Source of the DNA: a virus | Taxonomy: Duplodnaviria > Heunggongvirae > Uroviricota > Caudoviricetes | IMG/VR virus record: IMGVR_UViG_2909251562_000002 | Length of the DNA: 28,381 bases | Direction: 5' to 3' (one strand) | Part shown: positions 2,534 to 10,242 of the stretch, piece by piece | Layout: the number at the start of each line of letters is the position of its first letter | How positions within the stretch are numbered: position 1 is the stretch's first letter | Notes under the pieces: model-generated | Databases searched by the model: none | What the model was told of the DNA's origin: nothing | What the model saw: only the letters and a program-made list of their open reading frames with translations | Position numbers and translations under genes: made by a program

Positions 2534-3124
2534 ATGTCTCGAATTTTTGCTTACTGTCGGATATCAACGCTGGATCAGACCACCGAAAATCAACGCCGGG
2601 AAATCGAAAGTGCAGGTTTTAAAATCAAACCTCAGCAAATAATCGAAGAACACATTAGCGGCTCAGCAGCAACCAGTGAGCGTCCTGGTTTTAACCGGTT
2701 GCTTACTCGCCTGAAATGTGGTGATCAATTGATTGTGACAAAACTGGATCGCCTTGGTTGTAATGCAATGGATATCAGGAAAACAGTGGAACAACTGACC
2801 GAAACAGGTATCAGAGTGCATTGCTTAGCATTGGGTGGCATTGACCTGACCAGTCCAACAGGAAAAATGATGATGCAAGTAATTTCAGCAGTCGCTGAAT
2901 TTGAACGAGACCTTTTACTTGAACGCATTCATTCCGGGATAGTAAGAGCCCGCGGCGCAGGGAAACGTTTTGGTCGACCACCTGTGTTAAATGAAGAACA
3001 GAAACAGGTGGTATTCGAACGAATTAAGTCAGGTGTAAGTATAAGTGCCATTGCCCGGGAATTCAAAACCTCGCGGCAAACCATTTTAAGAGCCAAAGCA
3101 AAACTTCAGACACCTGACATATAA
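2534..3124 (+). CDS. pinQ: Serine DNA invertase (Pin/Gin/Hin family), 196 aa
   Basis: N-terminal catalytic serine region (YCRISTLDQ), resolvase core and C-terminal HTH; length and context match PinQ. Confidence 0.88.
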
Positions 3125-3221
3125 AAAATAATCTCGGTGTGAGATGCTTTACGTCTTCCAAGCCCCCTTCCTTGCCGTAAATGGAAAGATACATCTAATT
3201 ATAGAATTTATATGTTTTACC

Positions 3222-3395
3222 CTACGGCAGTGCTGGCCATTCAATATCCGGTACTACTGATGTATTAACACGGTTCAGCAACACCCGATACTTTTTCCAG
3301 ACTTCCAGCAACGAAGTTTCTTCCTCCGTTGCGATTTCCAGCTCAACAACAGTCTGAACGTACCAGGAACAGCCTCCTTCAGGGCTTGAAGGATA
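3222..3395 (-). pseudogene. Orphan 3' remnant of a tail fiber assembly gene (tfa), 57 codons with no start codon
   Basis: Manual translation directly after the stf TGA, in the same frame: [57 protein letters not shown], resembling the conserved lambdoid Tfa C-terminus. Confidence 0.55.
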
Positions 3396-6300
3396 TCAAT
3401 GTTCGCTTCCTGTTAACTGCCCGACAAGTGCAACCAGTTCGCTTACCTGATTTTCCAGAGTGCTGATCCGGGTGCCTGCTGTTGCCAGATTTTTACGTAG
3501 CGTTATGTTTTCCTCTTCCAGCGCGGTAACGCGACCATCTGTTTCACGGGCGACCTGAACAAGTAACCCCGTCACGGCGGCGTAGTCAACATTCAGATAA
3601 CGTGTTTCTTCACGTAATTCATTGCCGTCAACCGTTGGTCCCTGCAACTCTTCACCGTAATGAGTAAACGATCCCACAGCTTCTGGTATCGCCTCCATTA
3701 CTTCCTGTGCAATAACGCCAGCATAAGGCATCCCGTTTTCCCTGAGCGTGTAGGTGTATCCGTTCATTTTACGGATTGCTTTCGTCGCGTCGCTGATAAC
3801 GAGAATATCGTCTTTAAGGTCGCGGTCTGATGACTGATTCAGCGTTGTGCAATTAATAGCGCCATTTACATCAAACAACTGGCCTGCTGACGTTTTTTGC
3901 GCATAAAACAGATACGCAGCAGACGTTCCAACCTCAAAAACGTTTTGTCGATCACTTGATCCCCATACTTTTGCGGCAAATGATAGTTCTGTATTACCTA
4001 AGTTCTGTAAAACAAAACGATTTCCAGTCCCTGTTTGTTTTGTAAGAGTTAAATCAACAGTTGAGTTAACCTCATCCTTGTTGATAGTGAGCGCCTGCGC
4101 TTTAGCCCCGTTAACAGCACCTGTTTTGAGTTGAACCGCGCCGTCATTACCATTTAACAGTATCTCAGCTCCGCTAAAGAAATTTTTTAGCGACAGCATC
4201 TTACTTACGCCGACTGATGAACCCAACGCCCACGCGAGAGAATTACCGGTGCTATCAAACCCACGTACAAAGCAATCCATTTTGCTATAGTCTGACGTGC
4301 TTCCAAGGACATCAATTCGCCCTCCGCCAGATTTTACCGGGTTAGATGTGGTTAATGACCTGACAGCAAGATCGGTAGATGAATTGAGATCGTCTACTGT
4401 TAGTAATTTCTTCCATTCCTGCGTCGTTCCATTTTCAATTGTTCTTCCCCAAAAACCGGAATTGCGGCCTCCGAACTGCACAGCATAATTTTTACTAAAT
4501 TGAACATGAATGCCGCCAAGAACCATAGAACCTGCCGGGCCGTTTGTACTGCCTGCAATTGGTATAAATTTATTAATGTTATCAGTATGCTGCGTGTTCC
4601 AGTCTCGTCCTGTTTTTGTAAGCAGTCCTAATGTCGTGTCGAGCGCTTCGGTTAAAGTAAGGTTTTTAAATTTAACTGCGCTACTTTCGCCAAGACTTAA
4701 GTTGTTTCGCGCATCTTCTACTGTTGTCGCACCTGTACCTCCTTGCCCAACAGCTAATGGCAACCAGCCAGTGCCATTATGACAACCCCACAAACCAGAT
4801 TTGGAAACCTGTAAGCGTGGTGCGCCTGAAGAATACGTAGAATATACGTAAGTTGTTTCTTTTCCCTCTTCAACCCTTTCTGTTGATACATCTCTCTTCC
4901 ATTCAGACCAGGTACCGCTACCTCCTTCATATATTCGTCTATAAGTAATTCCCGGATTATTATAAGGGTAGTACACCTGAACGCAGGAAGAAGCAGTGTT
5001 GGCTCTCGTTTGGAGCACTATTAAAGCGCCCGCCAGACCGATTGGGTAATTTAATTCTTCTGTTGCGTAAGCGCTCGTTGGTTGTTGATAGAAACCAGAA
5101 TATTCACCGGTAAGGGTGTTTAGGTCAGTATTAGCAAGGCCAGCTTTTTGCTCATACATTACCCGCAAGTTCGCACGTGCTTGCTCGATAGTTCTTCCAC
5201 CAGTACCGCCCTGGGCTAAACCTAACGGAGACCATTGTCCAGAAGAAGAATCATAACCCCCCCAACTCCCGTTAGTATGGATTTCAAAGAAACGATCACC
5301 AGTTGGACCATACATACGAGTTGTTGATTCATTTTGACCAAAGCGGCTTAATTCATCTCTGCGGGTATGACGTATCCATTGCGGGCCAGAACTTTGGCTG
5401 TAAATGTACGAATACAATGATTTTGTATCTGAACCAACAAATAGACCGGAATATCTTTTTGTTGACACTTCTGATCTAACTATATAACCAGAAATAAGAT
5501 TATCCCCGGCACTAGACGCTACTGATGGATAACCTTTCGCTGAGATGTAAATCCTGATAAATCCAATATAACCTGATGGCTCAACAGAGATATCAGTGCA
5601 GGTCATGGCAACTTCACCAAGACCAATATTGTTACCAACAACGGATTGTGCCTGGTTGCGATAATTAAGTGCGTCCGCTGCAGATTTCGCCGCGTTTGTT
5701 TCACTGGATTTAGCATTAGTTTCGCTGCTCTTTGCTGCTGCCTCGCTATTTTTCGCGTTGGTTTCTGATTTTTTGGCTGCTGTCGCGGAGTTTGCCGATG
5801 CAGTTTGTGAGGCCGCTGCCGCCTGTGCGCTGTTATCCGCATTCGTCTCAGACGTTTTTGCGGCCTTCGCGGAATTTCCTGCCGCCGTTGCCGAAGAGGC
5901 TGCACTACTGGCGCTCGAGGCTGCGCTCGTTTCTGATGATTTCGCTGCCTCTTTTGAGGCCGCCGCATCCCGGGCTGAGGTGGCAGCTTCTGACGCTTTC
6001 GTGGTCGCGGTGGATGCAGAAGTGGCTGCAGATTTTTGTGACGCTGCAGCATTCGTTTCTGACGTTTTCGCCGCACCGGCACTGGTAGCTGCCGCGCTTT
6101 TTGAGGACTCTGCAGCGGCAGCACTTTTTTCCGCTTCAGTGGCCTTTGTTGATGCCGTTCCTGCGCTGGAAGACGCTGACTGAGCCGACGAAGCGGCCTG
6201 TCCGGCTGACGTGCTGGCTGCGCGTGCTGAGCCTGCAGCATCAGTCGCATGGGTTGCCGCCTCACGGGCAGATGTGCCGGCATCGCCGGCTGACTTCTTC

Positions 6301-6680
6301 GCGGCTGCCGTGTTCTGTGCCACCGCGGACGCGTTACGCGCCACCTCTTCCACCATCAGTTCAAAACGGCGCAGAGCCTCCGGACGGGCATCATCCTCCG
6401 TCATGGCACCGAGAAAATCATTCAGCGTACCGGGTCGGGAATCTTCATACACGGTGATGGTCCCGGCATGTGACGGCGGGAATCCTTCCACCAACAGAAT
6501 AACGCTGTACTGACCGTACTCAACGTCCATGCTGTAACGCCCGGCTTCATCCGGATTTTCTGAGGCCAGCGTGTTCACCACCACCGCGGTGCTGTTACGT
6601 TTTGCTTTCAGCTGGATTGTGCAGTTCTGTACCGGTTTTCCTGTGCCGTCTTTCAGTACACCTGAAATCTTTACTGCCAT
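3396..6680 (-). CDS. stf: Side tail fiber protein (lambda Stf-like N-terminus) with Ala/Ser-rich repeats and a C-terminal intramolecular chaperone-like domain
   Basis: N-terminus MAVKISGVLKDGTGKPVQNCTIQLKA matches lambda Stf; C-terminal SDRDLKDDI...NGYTYTLRENG...GVIAQEV then a coiled coil; ATG at 6678-6680 with GGGG upstream (track starts at GTG 6686). Confidence 0.9.
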   Translation of the reverse strand: MAVKISGVLKDGTGKPVQNCTIQLKAKRNSTAVVVNTLASENPDEAGRYSMDVEYGQYSVILLVEGFPPSHAGTITVYEDSRPGTLNDFLGAMTEDDARPEALRRFELMVEEVARNASAVAQNTAAAKKSAGDAGTSAREAATHATDAAGSARAASTSAGQAASSAQSASSSAGTASTKATEAEKSAAAAESSKSAAATSAGAAKTSETNAAASQKSAATSASTATTKASEAATSARDAAASKEAAKSSETSAASSASSAASSATAAGNSAKAAKTSETNADNSAQAAAASQTASANSATAAKKSETNAKNSEAAAKSSETNAKSSETNAAKSAADALNYRNQAQSVVGNNIGLGEVAMTCTDISVEPSGYIGFIRIYISAKGYPSVASSAGDNLISGYIVRSEVSTKRYSGLFVGSDTKSLYSYIYSQSSGPQWIRHTRRDELSRFGQNESTTRMYGPTGDRFFEIHTNGSWGGYDSSSGQWSPLGLAQGGTGGRTIEQARANLRVMYEQKAGLANTDLNTLTGEYSGFYQQPTSAYATEELNYPIGLAGALIVLQTRANTASSCVQVYYPYNNPGITYRRIYEGGSGTWSEWKRDVSTERVEEGKETTYVYSTYSSGAPRLQVSKSGLWGCHNGTGWLPLAVGQGGTGATTVEDARNNLSLGESSAVKFKNLTLTEALDTTLGLLTKTGRDWNTQHTDNINKFIPIAGSTNGPAGSMVLGGIHVQFSKNYAVQFGGRNSGFWGRTIENGTTQEWKKLLTVDDLNSSTDLAVRSLTTSNPVKSGGGRIDVLGSTSDYSKMDCFVRGFDSTGNSLAWALGSSVGVSKMLSLKNFFSGAEILLNGNDGAVQLKTGAVNGAKAQALTINKDEVNSTVDLTLTKQTGTGNRFVLQNLGNTELSFAAKVWGSSDRQNVFEVGTSAAYLFYAQKTSAGQLFDVNGAINCTTLNQSSDRDLKDDILVISDATKAIRKMNGYTYTLRENGMPYAGVIAQEVMEAIPEAVGSFTHYGEELQGPTVDGNELREETRYLNVDYAAVTGLLVQVARETDGRVTALEEENITLRKNLATAGTRISTLENQVSELVALVGQLTGSEH
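5650..6300 (-). repeat. In-frame degenerate tandem repeats encoding an Ala/Ser/Thr-rich tract (AAKxSETNA-like units) within stf
   Basis: Repeated DNA units of about 27 nt visible on the plus strand; the protein shows KSSETNA / KTSETNA / KKSETNA repeats. Confidence 0.8.
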
Positions 6681-6689
6681 ATTCACCCC

Positions 6690-6718
6690 ACAAAAAAGCC
6701 CGCCTGAACCGGCGGGCT
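6690..6718 (-). terminator. Candidate intrinsic terminator between lom and stf
   Basis: Hairpin GCCCGCC...GGCGGGC (6697-6718) followed on the minus strand by a T-run, ending a few nt before the stf ribosome-binding region. Confidence 0.45.
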
Positions 6719-6744: not shown

Positions 6745-7299
6745 TCAGAATTTATAACCAACACCAACGATGAACCCGTCAGTGCGCCAGTCGCCACTGC
6801 CGGAGCCTTCATAAGCGACATCAATGGCCACGGATTCGGTCGGGTTAAACTGCACGCCAGCCCCCCACGCCAGAGACGTGTTGCTGTGGCGACCGTCATC
6901 ACTTCCGGTCAGCACATCGTGCGTTTTCCCCTTGTTGTCAGTTACGCGGAGATAATCTCCGGAGAAAGTCGACACACGGCTGTAAGCCATACCCGCCATC
7001 GCATACGCGCTGAACCATTCATTCACGCGCACAGACGGCCCCGCCATTACGCTGAACCAGCGGTTACGAACGGAATCTTCATGCCAGCGGGTATCGCTGT
7101 AACGGGTCAGCTGGCGATTCTTGTCTCCTGCATAGCTGAATGACGTCACCATCCCCAGTGTGTCCGTAAACTCATAGCGGTATTTCACGTTAATCCCGTT
7201 CAGATCATCGCTGCCGGGAACGTTCGTCGAGGCATGAAGATACCCCGCGCTCAGCGTGGCCTGCTGCTCAGACGCCCATGCAGGCGCACCGGATACCAG
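6745..7299 (-). pseudogene. lom: lom (Ail/Lom outer-membrane protein), 5'-truncated: start codon and most of the signal peptide are missing
   Basis: Translation matches lambda Lom from ...VSGAPAWASEQQATLSAGYLHAS to the C-terminal GVGYKF; upstream in-frame residues diverge from Lom and hit a stop at 7333-7335. Confidence 0.85.
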
Positions 7300-7573
7300 T
7301 CCTTTCTCTCTTTCGGCTCCATACGGGATGGATCATGAACAGAGTCTGCTGCCTCATGCTTCACACTAAACAGGGCTGGCCCGACATGCTGCAGGGCGTA
7401 AACGGGGTTCCCCCTGACAGTCGCAGCCACAGGAGTGTTGGCCGCGAGAAGCCGTTTTTTTACTGTGTCCCGGTGAAGCCCAAAGGCCTCAGCGATTTTA
7501 AAAACACTCCAGTAATAAGCATCACCGATCCCGCTCACATTTGACATAAGCAACTCCATCTGGCAGGTGAAAA
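7300..7573 (-). pseudogene. Fragment of a Nu1-like terminase small subunit gene (about 90 N-terminal codons), fused to lom by deletion and separated from its ATG by IS66
   Basis: Segment ...YYWSVFKIAEAFGLHRDTVKKRLLAANTPVAATVRGNPVYAL has the layout of the lambda Nu1 N-terminal helix-turn-helix; the ancestral ATG is at 10282-10284 about 150 bp from the cos-like site. Confidence 0.45.
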
Positions 7574-7626
7574 GTAACCGGCTCATTTAAACCGTCTGGT
7601 CTGTTTCCTCCGGCTCTACAAAAATA

Positions 7627-8304
7627 ATGTCCATCATTTTTAATGGACACTATCGTATGAAACACCGGACCTGGATCACTGAAGCTTTACGTCTTCACTT
7701 TGAAGAACATTTACCCCGGGTTGTGGCCGGGCGTCGCCTGGGTGTACCAAAATCAACAGTTTGTAGTATGTTCGTGCGCTTTCGGAGAGCTGGCCTTTCG
7801 TGGCCTTTGCCCGCAGGCATGTCGGAGCAGGAACTTGATGCCTGCCTTTACGGACAATTTTCCACGGTACCAGTCGTACGTCCTGAAAGCACCGTTATAT
7901 CCGAAGCCCCCGTGGTAAAAAAACGTCCCCGGCGGCCCAACTTCCCTTATGAGTTTAAAATCGCCTTAGTGGAGCAGTCACTGCAGCCCGGAGCCTGTGT
8001 GGCGCAGATCGCCCGGGAAAACGGAATCAACGATAACCTGCTCTTCAACTGGCGCCATCAATACCGGAAAGGTGGCCTGCTGCCTTCCGGAAAAAATATG
8101 CCGGCACTGCTTCCCGTGACGTTAACGCCGGAGCCGGATAATAAAATCCCGGCCCCCGCACAGGAACCAGAGCAGATAAATACACCGTCCGACAGTCTGT
8201 GTTGTGAGCTGGTTCTGCCGGCCGGAACTCTCAGGCTTAAAGGTAAACTGACGCCGGCGTTATTACAGACACTTATCCGCGAAATAAAAGGGAGCAGCCA
8301 CTGA
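7627..8304 (+). CDS. IS66-family accessory protein TnpA (orf1), 225 aa
   Basis: C-terminal region (KIALVEQSLQPGACVAQIARENGINDNLLFNWRHQYRKG) is typical of IS66 orf1; stop overlaps the tnpB ATG (TGATG). An internal start at 7657 is possible. Confidence 0.75.
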   Translation: MSIIFNGHYRMKHRTWITEALRLHFEEHLPRVVAGRRLGVPKSTVCSMFVRFRRAGLSWPLPAGMSEQELDACLYGQFSTVPVVRPESTVISEAPVVKKRPRRPNFPYEFKIALVEQSLQPGACVAQIARENGINDNLLFNWRHQYRKGGLLPSGKNMPALLPVTLTPEPDNKIPAPAQEPEQINTPSDSLCCELVLPAGTLRLKGKLTPALLQTLIREIKGSSH

Positions 8305-8651
8305 TGATATCTCTCCCTGCAGGTTCGCGTATCTGGCTGGTTGCAGGTATCACCGATATGCGAAATGGCTTTAACGGCCTGGCATCAAAAGTTCAGAACG
8401 TCCTGAAGGATGACCCGTTCTCCGGACACCTGTTCATCTTCCGCGGACGCCGGGGTGACCAGATAAAAGTGTTGTGGGCTGACAGTGACGGACTGTGCCT
8501 CTTCACCAAACGCCTGGAGCGGGGCCGCTTCGTCTGGCCAGTCACCCGTGACGGCAAGGTGCACCTTACTCCGGCTCAGTTATCCATGCTTCTTGAAGGT
8601 ATCAACTGGAAGCACCCGAAACGAACGGAACGCGCTGGAATCCGCATATAA
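8304..8651 (+). CDS. IS66-family TnpB (orf2), 115 aa
   Basis: Conserved IS66 orf2 sequence (MISLPAGSRIWLVAGITDMRNGFNGL...). Confidence 0.9.
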   Translation: MISLPAGSRIWLVAGITDMRNGFNGLASKVQNVLKDDPFSGHLFIFRGRRGDQIKVLWADSDGLCLFTKRLERGRFVWPVTRDGKVHLTPAQLSMLLEGINWKHPKRTERAGIRI

Positions 8652-8670
8652 CCCGTTGTAAAGTGAGGAT

Positions 8671-10242
8671 ATGGACACCTCACTTGCTCATGAGAACGCC
8701 CGCCTGCGGGCACTGTTGCAGACGCAACAGGACACCATCCGCCAGATGGCTGAATACAACCGCCTGCTCTCACAGCGGGTGGCGGCTTATGCTTCCGAAA
8801 TCAACCGGCTGAAGGCGCTGGTTGCGAAACTGCAACGTATGCAGTTCGGTAAAAGCTCAGAAAAACTTCGTGCAAAAACCGAACGGCAGATACAGGAAGC
8901 ACAGGAGCGAATCAGCGCACTTCAGGAAGAAATGGCGGAAACGCTGGGTGAGCAATATGACCCGGTACTGCCATCCGCCCTGCGCCAGTCTTCAGCCCGT
9001 AAACCGTTACCGGCCTCACTTCCCCGTGAAACCCGGGTTATCCGGCCGGAAGAGGAATGCTGTCCTGCCTGTGGTGGTGAACTCAGTTCTCTGGGATGTG
9101 ATGTGTCAGAGCAACTGGAGCTTATCAGCAGCGCCTTTAAGGTTATCGAAACACAACGTCCGAAACTGGCCTGTTGTCGGTGCGACCATATCGTGCAGGC
9201 ACCAGTACCTTCAAAACCCATTGCACGCAGTTATGCCGGAGCGGGGCTCCTGGCCCATGTCGTCACCGGAAAATATGCAGACCATCTGCCGTTATACCGC
9301 CAGTCAGAGATATACCGCCGTCAGGGTGTGGAGCTGAGCCGTGCCACACTGGGGCGCTGGACAGGTGCCGTTGCTGAACTACTGGAGCCGCTGTATGACG
9401 TCCTGCGCCAGTATGTGCTGATGCCCGGTAAAGTCCATGCTGATGATATCCCCGTCCCGGTCCAGGAGCCGGGCAGCGGTAAAACCCGGACAGCCCGGCT
9501 GTGGGTCTACGTCCGTGATGACCGTAACGCCGGTTCACAGATGCCCCCGGCGGTCTGGTTCGCGTACAGTCCGGACCGGAAAGGTATCCATCCACAAAAT
9601 CACCTGGCCGGTTACAGCGGTGTGCTTCAGGCCGATGCTTACGGTGGTTACCGGGCGTTATACGAATCCGGCAGAATAACGGAAGCCGCGTGTATGGCTC
9701 ATGCCCGGAGAAAAATCCACGATGTGCATGCAAGAGCGCCCACCGACATCACCACGGAAGCCCTGCAGCGTATCGGTGAACTGTATGCCATCGAGGCAGA
9801 GGTCCGGGGCTGTTCAGCAGAACAGCGTCTGGCGGCAAGAAAAACCAGAGCCGCGCCACTGATGCAGTCACTGTATGACTGGATACAGCAACAGATGAAA
9901 ACACTGTCGCGTCACTCAGATACGGCAAAAGCGTTCGCATACCTGCTGAAACAGTGGGATGCACTGAACGTGTACTGCAGTAATGGCTGGGTGGAAATCG
10001 ACAACAACATCGCAGAGAACGCCTTACGGGGAGTGGCCGTAGGCCGGAAAAAGTGGATGTTCGCGGGTTCCGACAGCGGTGGTGAACATGCGGCGGTGTT
10101 GTACTCGCTGATCGGCACATGCCGTCTGAACAATGTGGAGCCAGAAAAGTGGCTGCGCTACGTCATTGAACATATCCAGGACTGGCCGGCAAACCGGGTA
10201 CGCGATCTGTTGCCCTGGAAAGTTGATCTGAGCTCTCAGTAA
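8671..10242 (+). CDS. IS66-family transposase TnpC (orf3), 523 aa
   Basis: N-terminal leucine zipper, CPACGG...C...CxxC zinc motif and catalytic region; ATG with GTGAGGA upstream. Confidence 0.9.

Follow-up and report, generated by a model that had tools for sequence, protein, structure and literature searches.

The stretch of DNA analyzed here, 28,381 nucleotides (nt) from the IMG/VR virus record IMGVR_UViG_2909251562_000002 (hereafter the window), is a defective Qin prophage of the Escherichia coli chromosome that carries an intact gene, stf, for a side tail fiber. This gene probably encodes a self-chaperoning lambdoid fiber, whose distal cassette would have been joined only once to the end of a tail fiber assembly gene (tfa) and would since have spread by homologous exchange. 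A preliminary description of the window, made from the letters alone, had proposed a lambda-like N-terminus joined to a C-terminal self-cleaving chaperone-like domain, with an orphan tfa tail left in frame after the stop codon. The arrangement is real, common in E. coli prophages, and already annotated (a RefSeq protein and a partial tfa). What is added here is that the junction is a single, shared one, that linkage between chaperone and tfa tail is complete in E. coli genomes, and that the tail can be read as a crossover arm. Beyond bookkeeping, the significance is low; nevertheless, the leftover tfa end marks the positions of crossovers when fiber cassettes move between phages and cryptic prophages, and a natural cassette of roughly 1-2 kb, which would do without a helper gene, is useful for the engineering of lambda Stf chimeras and for models of host-range exchange. 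The fiber gene is organized as follows:

3396..6680, minus strand: stf, side tail fiber of 1094 amino acids (aa), intact open reading frame (ORF) with its ATG at 6680 (RefSeq WP_000279079.1)
6279..6680, minus strand: lambda-type tail-attachment domain, phage_tail_N (PF08400), residues 1-134, Pfam E 3.1e-71 over the full model length
5646..6278, minus strand: Ala/Ser-rich repetitive shaft, residues 135-345, conserved among lambdoid Stf proteins (89-100% identity in 50 loci)
4674..5645, minus strand: variable middle, residues 346-669, from segment identities and PHROG 6578
4683-5117, minus strand: pyocin-fiber knob-like stretch, residues 522-666, similar to the R-pyocin fiber knob (PDB 6cl5, E 2.4e-6)
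3831..4673, minus strand: distal part of the mature fiber, presumed receptor-binding, residues 670-950, from homology to mEp460 and siphovirus fibers
3399..3830, minus strand: S74 intramolecular chaperone domain (Peptidase_S74, PF13884), residues 951-1094
3828-3830, minus strand: Ser951, predicted catalytic residue, from homology
3813-3815, minus strand: Lys956, predicted catalytic residue, from homology

The lambda-like start of the fiber is well supported. In addition to the Pfam match, residues 1-284 are 86% identical to lambda orf-401 across 284 aa, and the N-terminus matches that of the lambda tail fiber in PDB 9e7m with E 7e-51. The RefSeq product name of the protein is 'prophage tail fiber N-terminal domain-containing protein', and an architecture name of the Prokaryotic Genome Annotation Pipeline (PGAP) exists as well, 'prophage tail fiber N-terminal domain and S74 family ...'. 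The listing of ORFs extends the frame upstream to a GTG at 6686.

At the other end, the last 144 residues begin with SDRDLKDDI and contain NGYTYTLRENG and GVIAQEV, exactly as had been described. Self-cleaving chaperone domains of this type are known from phages T5, K1F and S16 as an alternative to Tfa. In the profile search, residues 951-1002 match positions 1-57 of the 58-position Peptidase_S74 model ('chaperone of endosialidase') with 45.6 bits (E 8.4e-12), above the curated cut-off of 22 bits, and this match, together with a Ser-x4-Lys dyad, argues for an S74 intramolecular chaperone at the C-terminus. Residues S950, S951, D952, R953, L955 and K956 are invariant in 20 homologues (62-96% identity), and S-x4-K is found upstream of the motif in 114 of the 123 diverse GVIAQEV-motif ORFs collected from IMG/VR. 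Moreover, the C-terminal ends of 20 PHROG tail-fiber families match the chaperone end of this fiber. Among solved structures, the nearest in sequence is that of the C-terminal chaperone of Salmonella phage S16 gp37 (PDB 6f45), in which 'NVSSDRRIKKDI...GGYTY...AGLIAQEV' aligns with 'NQSSDRDLKDDI...NGYTYTL...AGVIAQEV' of stf, and SSDRRIKKD with S951-D-R-D-L-K956. In the T5 fiber protein pb1, cleavage takes place at Thr1263|Ser1264 and is blocked by the S1264A substitution; the five-residue spacing of Ser951 and Lys956 equals that of Ser1264 and Lys1269 (PMC4690869). We infer that the scissile bond of stf is Ser950|Ser951 and that a chaperone of 144 aa would be released. The coiled coil expected after the chaperone motifs also has a counterpart, in the form of a long C-terminal helix modeled at residues 1021-1090 (352-421 of the model) with a predicted local distance difference test score (pLDDT) of up to 89, and of a weak match to a coiled-coil profile. 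The layout predicted for stf is that of the T5 pb1 type of fiber, in which a self-cleaving C-terminal chaperone precedes a helical coiled coil and is set free once the trimer has folded (PMC4690869). With phmmer, the tip of the stf product has no similarity to T5 pb1, only the Ala-rich shaft being matched (8hqz). Finally, the stf product ends with LVGQLTGSEH where the fiber of phage mEp044 ends with LVSKLTEGEK, a natural chaperone C-terminus. As stf ends where other chaperone domains end, its stop codon belongs to the incoming cassette.

This stop codon, TGA at 3396-3398, is followed in the same frame by 57 open codons (3225-3395) up to a TAG at 3222-3224. The preliminary description had attributed all 57 to tfa. 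The frame is indeed open and the tfa sequence orphan, but only codons 13-57 (45 of the 57) are Tfa-like, and codons 1-12 match nothing in Tfa. Two parts are therefore distinguished:

3360..3395, minus strand: linker of 36 nt, codons 1-12 after the stop, not Tfa-like
3222..3359, minus strand: tfa remnant, codons of Tfa residues 147-191 and the TAG stop, no start codon

Codons 13-57 are 76% identical to lambda Tfa residues 147-191, and the remnant matches Caudo_TAP (PF02413) at model positions 87-130 of 131 (E 8.5e-18). With these matches and that to Peptidase_S74, the preliminary description withstands both of the refuting tests that it had set itself. It falls short of a complete Tfa, which has about 190 aa, a start codon and the whole profile; PGAP/RefSeq annotate 3222-3347 as a partial pseudogene, 'tail fiber assembly protein, incomplete, missing N-terminus', and NCBIfam has no family for either the fiber or the remnant. 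With a lambda-type Tfa as tblastn query, the remnant is the only tfa content of the 28-kb window.

The junction between the fiber gene and the remnant is a true recombination junction, as had been claimed, but it was apparently not made in this locus. The stop codon, the 36-nt linker and the entry point into tfa are identical in three phages, mEp460, Ayreon and PhiR70_1. A 301-nt junction probe is covered over at least 80% of its length in 802 of 5426 complete E. coli genomes, and a 302-nt probe placed within the chaperone alone gives the same count (802 of 5426; matches of any kind occur in 810 genomes, at 1436 places). Counted by genome, the tfa tail thus goes with every E. coli occurrence of this chaperone allele family. 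The exact junction 23-mer, which comprises stop and linker, was found in at least 50 IMG/VR contigs, and was absent from a one-genome-per-species collection; by this narrow test, the junction did not turn up beyond E. coli-type sequences. S74 fibers of phages FritzHoffmann and mEp044 run into their own, unrelated 3' flanks, and the mEp044 record annotates a predicted Rho-independent terminator just past the stop. From these comparisons, we conclude that the junction is a single, old one, that the original illegitimate joint would lie in the linker at 3360-3395, and that one ancient event would underlie all the lambdoid S74-type fibers seen here.

After this event, the remnant seems to have served repeatedly as a homologous crossover arm. 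Among the 45 copies with enough flank for a patchwork analysis, there are two linker haplotypes (P..W and S..R), several blocks in the middle of the remnant (ETSLLEV, ETLLLEA, EKALLAA, ENSLLEA and others), and the 3' ends with their downstream contexts are of at least nine kinds, unrelated to one another. The 3' ends include PALP with pinQ, PAVPVME as in lambda, PTNPVRE, PEEPDTV, PVAPIG and VNPVWPPPSKR, each directly before the stop. Both linker haplotypes combine with five of these ends, which requires recombination inside 171 nt. The window itself is mEp460-like from the stf stop down to about 3267, and identical to the tfaQ/pinQ side of K-12 from about 3248 downwards (the last 27 nt or so), which places its probable right-hand crossover inside the remnant, at about 3248-3266. 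Such events have an experimental parallel: in stf/tfa, recombination of lambda with the Qin and Rac prophages was measured at about 2e-6, and the right junction lay in tfa for one third of the Rac recombinants (PMC3945230).

The preliminary description had also stated that fibers of this kind need no separate Tfa, and this agrees with the gene content of mEp460. This phage, with the same fiber end, has no annotated assembly protein, and its whole genome encodes only Tfa residues 147-191 (tblastn, lambda-type Tfa query). Similarly, among 114 diverse S74 genes retrieved from IMG/VR through the GVIAQEV motif, the E. coli lambdoid gene is the only one with lambda-type Tfa homology within 1.5 kb downstream, the query being lambda-like Tfa only. 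An intramolecular chaperone and a separate Tfa have been described as a pair of alternative solutions (PMC11990801). S74-type lambdoid fibers would thus apparently assemble without a separate Tfa.

Taken together, these data suggest the following mechanism. The N-terminal domain (residues 1-134) would dock the trimer on a lambda-type tail tip, and the Ala/Ser-rich shaft and the variable knob modules would carry the distal, receptor-binding part (about 670-950). The last 144 residues would nucleate the folding of the trimer from the C-terminus, after which the chaperone would remove itself through a cut at Ser950|Ser951, catalyzed, by homology, by Ser951 and Lys956; the fiber would require no separate Tfa. 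On one occasion, a cassette made of the distal fiber, the chaperone and the stop codon would have been joined by illegitimate recombination to tfa at about codon 147, with deletion of the old fiber tip and of three quarters of tfa. From then on, about 135 nt of the conserved tfa 3' end and the conserved 5' end of stf would have acted as homology arms, allowing the cassette to move among lambdoid phages and prophages by homologous recombination. An exchange of this type would have put it into the defective Qin prophage of the window, with the right-hand crossover at about 3248-3266. Because this prophage has neither head nor tail genes, stf could be of use there only as a reservoir allele or through fibers provided in trans, for a different lambdoid phage whose attachment site fits them.

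A more speculative extension, which we regard as rather doubtful, is that second-order selection has preserved the tfa tail in its role of homology handle on the right-hand side of the S74 cassette. Without the tail, a cassette could no longer be swapped into stf-tfa phages, which would explain both its presence in 802 of the 802 genomes and its continual rewriting from intact tfa. If this were true, the tail would be a natural adaptor for the exchange of chaperone-dependent and self-chaperoning receptor-binding modules at one locus.

Several points weigh against the self-chaperoning, once-joined cassette. Autocleavage and the chaperone function are read from sequence. An AlphaFold2 monomer of residues 670-1094, built on an alignment of 20 E. 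coli sequences, has a mean pLDDT of 37.7 and a predicted template modeling score of 0.20; this poor model likely results from an obligate interdigitated trimer combined with a shallow alignment, in which all matches have at least 62% identity. The Arg/Asp folding-sensor residues described for T5 were not located in stf. Tfa independence is argued from the absence of a gene in the one phage genome checked, and a very divergent chaperone could escape a lambda-type query. The remnant could also have been retained passively from a recent common origin, and not for its use as a homology arm. Lastly, an IS66 element and a terminator-like hairpin lie upstream of stf.

These upstream features bear directly on the best-placed alternative, in which stf is an inert relic, neither expressed nor assembled, intact only through recent acquisition and with no function even as a donor allele. 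We consider this possible but unlikely. The annotation of the window's Qin prophage contains no head or tail gene (J included), the IS66 element and a truncated nohA-like gene stand just upstream of lom, the hairpin precedes stf, and a scan of the window found no promoter for stf above shuffle expectation, nor an intrinsic terminator 3' of it. The gene may well be silent in its present host. Nevertheless, at least five genomes share an intact and identical copy of the 3.3-kb ORF, and at least 80% of the configuration is present in 98 genomes; furthermore, lambda measurably takes DNA from the stf/tfa regions of Qin and Rac (PMC3945230). The alternative also concerns present use alone and leaves the encoded product unchanged.

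The presence of an intact pinQ invertase gene 98 nt from the remnant raises the question of whether the neighboring Pin invertase made the swap by acting on crossover sites, in the way of the invertible fiber segments in Mu (G), P1 (C) and e14 (P), and invertase-driven exchange of stf has been proposed in literature cited by PMC3945230. Such a mechanism is very unlikely here, given that no core of the AAACC-NN-GGTTT type lies near stf (two matches with one mismatch, at 9029 and 11871, compare with 1.3 expected by chance), that no convincing inverted repeat flanks the cassette, that the opposite strand has no alternative fiber end or second tfa, and that most copies of the junction are not adjacent to a pin gene. 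With no such core or paired inverted repeat in its own vicinity either, pinQ looks like an orphan invertase without an invertible segment.

It is hardly more credible that the remnant works as a protein, either through readthrough of the TGA, which would append a Tfa C-terminal peptide to the chaperone domain, or as a small Tfa-C translated from an internal start. In 52 of 53 copies, nothing interrupts the frame before the natural tfa stop, the linker has the ribosome-binding-site-like AAGGAGG, and two short PHROG families (phrog_2341 and phrog_3792) match the same C-terminal stretch of Tfa. However, AAGGAGG has no ATG, GTG or TTG within usable range and the ORF list shows nothing of at least 40 aa in this place, the remaining copy (L019) is frameshifted, and the three polymorphisms of the linker all change an amino acid. 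In remnant codons 13-42, the polymorphic sites are distributed 6/7/12 over the codon positions (chi-square p 0.29 against uniform), those of the chaperone 23/20/65 (p 2e-8), with the frameshifted copy excluded; the contrast between the two is weak, as it is not significant (Fisher p 0.10 and 0.27) and is confounded by variation imported from intact tfa. The open frame is accounted for by intact tfa alleles having overwritten the remnant time and again. The remnant is probably not translated, and it probably is in frame by chance, with a 36-nt linker and an expectation of one in three.

That the junction was made locally in Qin, by a deletion or insertion fusing a new S74 cassette to the resident tfaQ, is highly improbable despite the identity to K-12 Qin from the last 27 nt or so of the remnant through to pinQ, because the same stop, linker and tfa start point recur in the three phages, the 50 IMG/VR contigs and the 802 E. 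coli genomes, with many downstream contexts, and because the remnant becomes Qin-like only after about 130 nt, which is what a homologous crossover would produce.

Instead of the two-part mosaic first described, at least five segments can be distinguished in the fiber by their levels of identity. Compared with mEp460 Stf, residues 1-350 are about 97% identical, residues 350-505 about 45%, residues 506-669, which include the resemblance to the R-pyocin knob, have no counterpart, residues 670-760 are 56% identical, and identity reaches 100% over residues 761-1094. The breaks in homology coincide with two GGTG...AR.NL motifs, located near residues 490-506 and 646-661. A survey of segments in 50 viral contigs (IMG/VR) with the same junction gave 93-99% identity for the N-terminus, 89-100% for the shaft and 85-100% for the chaperone; the middle falls into unrelated classes, and residues 761-950 form three allele groups, at about 100%, 90% and 70%. 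PHROG 6578 covers the fiber piecewise between about residue 33 and a point close to the C-terminus, and Pfam gave nothing credible on residues 346-950, even at E values up to 1. The distal stf DNA has 74% nt identity to the lateral fiber of the Nonagvirus FritzHoffmann and 68.5% to the fiber of the T5-like phage slur09, and lateral fibers of this kind are thought to bind surface glycans (PMC8594841). The preliminary description considered that receptor specificity had probably been swapped. Given the several allele classes of the distal domain and its relatives among virulent siphoviruses, a change of specificity through exchange of the distal part is plausible, with no receptor to be named.

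Among known systems, the closest is mEp460 (NC_019716, F853_gp20), with the same architecture, lom-stf order, stop, linker and remnant, which are also those of Ayreon and PhiR70_1. Its Stf has 1200-1202 aa, compared with 1094 aa in the window, and the middle modules differ, as do the end of the remnant and the downstream genes (dinI/int instead of pinQ). Besides, mEp460 is a complete phage, deposited years ago, whereas the copy in the window lies in a defective prophage. The Stf and Tfa of Ur-lambda (orf-401/orf-314 and orf-194) share the attachment domain, the Ala/Ser shaft and the position of the gene after lom; in contrast, the distal half of the lambda fiber (orf-314) has no similarity to stf, lacks the S74 domain and depends on a separate Tfa of 194 aa. 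The stfQ'-tfaQ-pinQ region of K-12 Qin occupies the same chromosomal locus (ydfJ side, ynfT-ydfK-pinQ). There, a full tfaQ stands beside only a 320-aa, Tfa-dependent stfQ fragment fused to nohA, whereas in the Qin of the window a full-length S74-type stf is accompanied by lom and by no more of tfa than its tail.

The 3.7 kb around stf and the remnant are 100% identical to strains of the enterotoxigenic E. coli type, 67-1, TW11681 and others. In the 67-1-type gene order, Qin reads ydfJ' - IS2 - ynfT - ydfK - pinQ - partial tfa, and continues with stf - lom - truncated nohA-like gene - IS66, and then the Qin lysis, cold-shock, relBE and dicB genes. The neighbors of stf in the window are:

2534..3124, plus strand: pinQ, serine invertase of 196 aa, intact, downstream of stf
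6697-6718: terminator-like hairpin between lom and stf
6745..7329, minus strand: lom, upstream of stf, in the lambda gene order
7627-10242: IS66-family element (tnpA, tnpB, ISCro1 transposase), beyond the nohA-like gene

Of the lambdoid late operon, the lom-stf order and the intervening hairpin are retained, and J and all other tail genes are deleted. Within 6745-10242, lom overlaps the truncated nohA-like (DUF1441) gene, so that the deletion that removed the head and tail genes joined nohA to lom in the window. In K-12 Qin, nohA abuts the stfQ fragment, which gives different deletion end points in the same prophage.

Minor observations concern the linker and remnant. Directly after the stf stop, the linker contains a perfect 6-bp hairpin (3376-3392, CCTTCA-AGCCC-TGAAGG), overlapped by the Shine-Dalgarno-like AAGGAGG at 3373-3379; both may be leftovers of the donor 3' flank. 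The RNA covering stop, linker and remnant (3215-3410) folds at -64.7 kcal/mol (z -3.55, none of 200 shuffles as stable), with a 9-bp stem in the conserved tfa part (GCAACGGAG...CUUCGUUGC) that is not followed by a terminator-like T run. A sequence search for the origin of the 36-nt linker returned only mEp460, Ayreon and PhiR70_1, plus one match in Morganella phage IME1369_01 (L061, 36155-36205; 50 nt, 82% identity, E 2e-4, opposite strand). The latter, a weak match that touches the linker and the start of the remnant, falls in an unrelated nin-region context, where a gene for a 'putative virulence protein' ends, and probably arose by chance.

Other observations concern the fiber gene and its copies. 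The shaft DNA is GC-rich and made of direct repeats in multiples of 21 nt (families D1-D3), and ORFs of 226, 141 and 118 aa, in other frames or on the opposite strand, overlap this region (5603-6283 and 5732-6183). They resemble the annotated orf206b of lambda and are most likely compositional artifacts of the repeats. In five IMG/VR loci (L013, L022, L033, L034 and L046), short ORFs of 178-314 aa have this chaperone domain and the tfa remnant at their end, and these appear to be truncated or interrupted S74-type fiber genes. Some copies in E. coli genomes are fused to terminase or Lom annotations (P0007, P0056 and P0081), which suggests frequent deletions beside the fiber cassette. Finally, the window does not come from strain 67-1 (L009) itself, despite the identity of the stf region: relative to that strain, its ORF coordinates are shifted by 8 nt starting near 13.3 kb and, farther along, by about 1.33 kb, IS1414 being present in 67-1.

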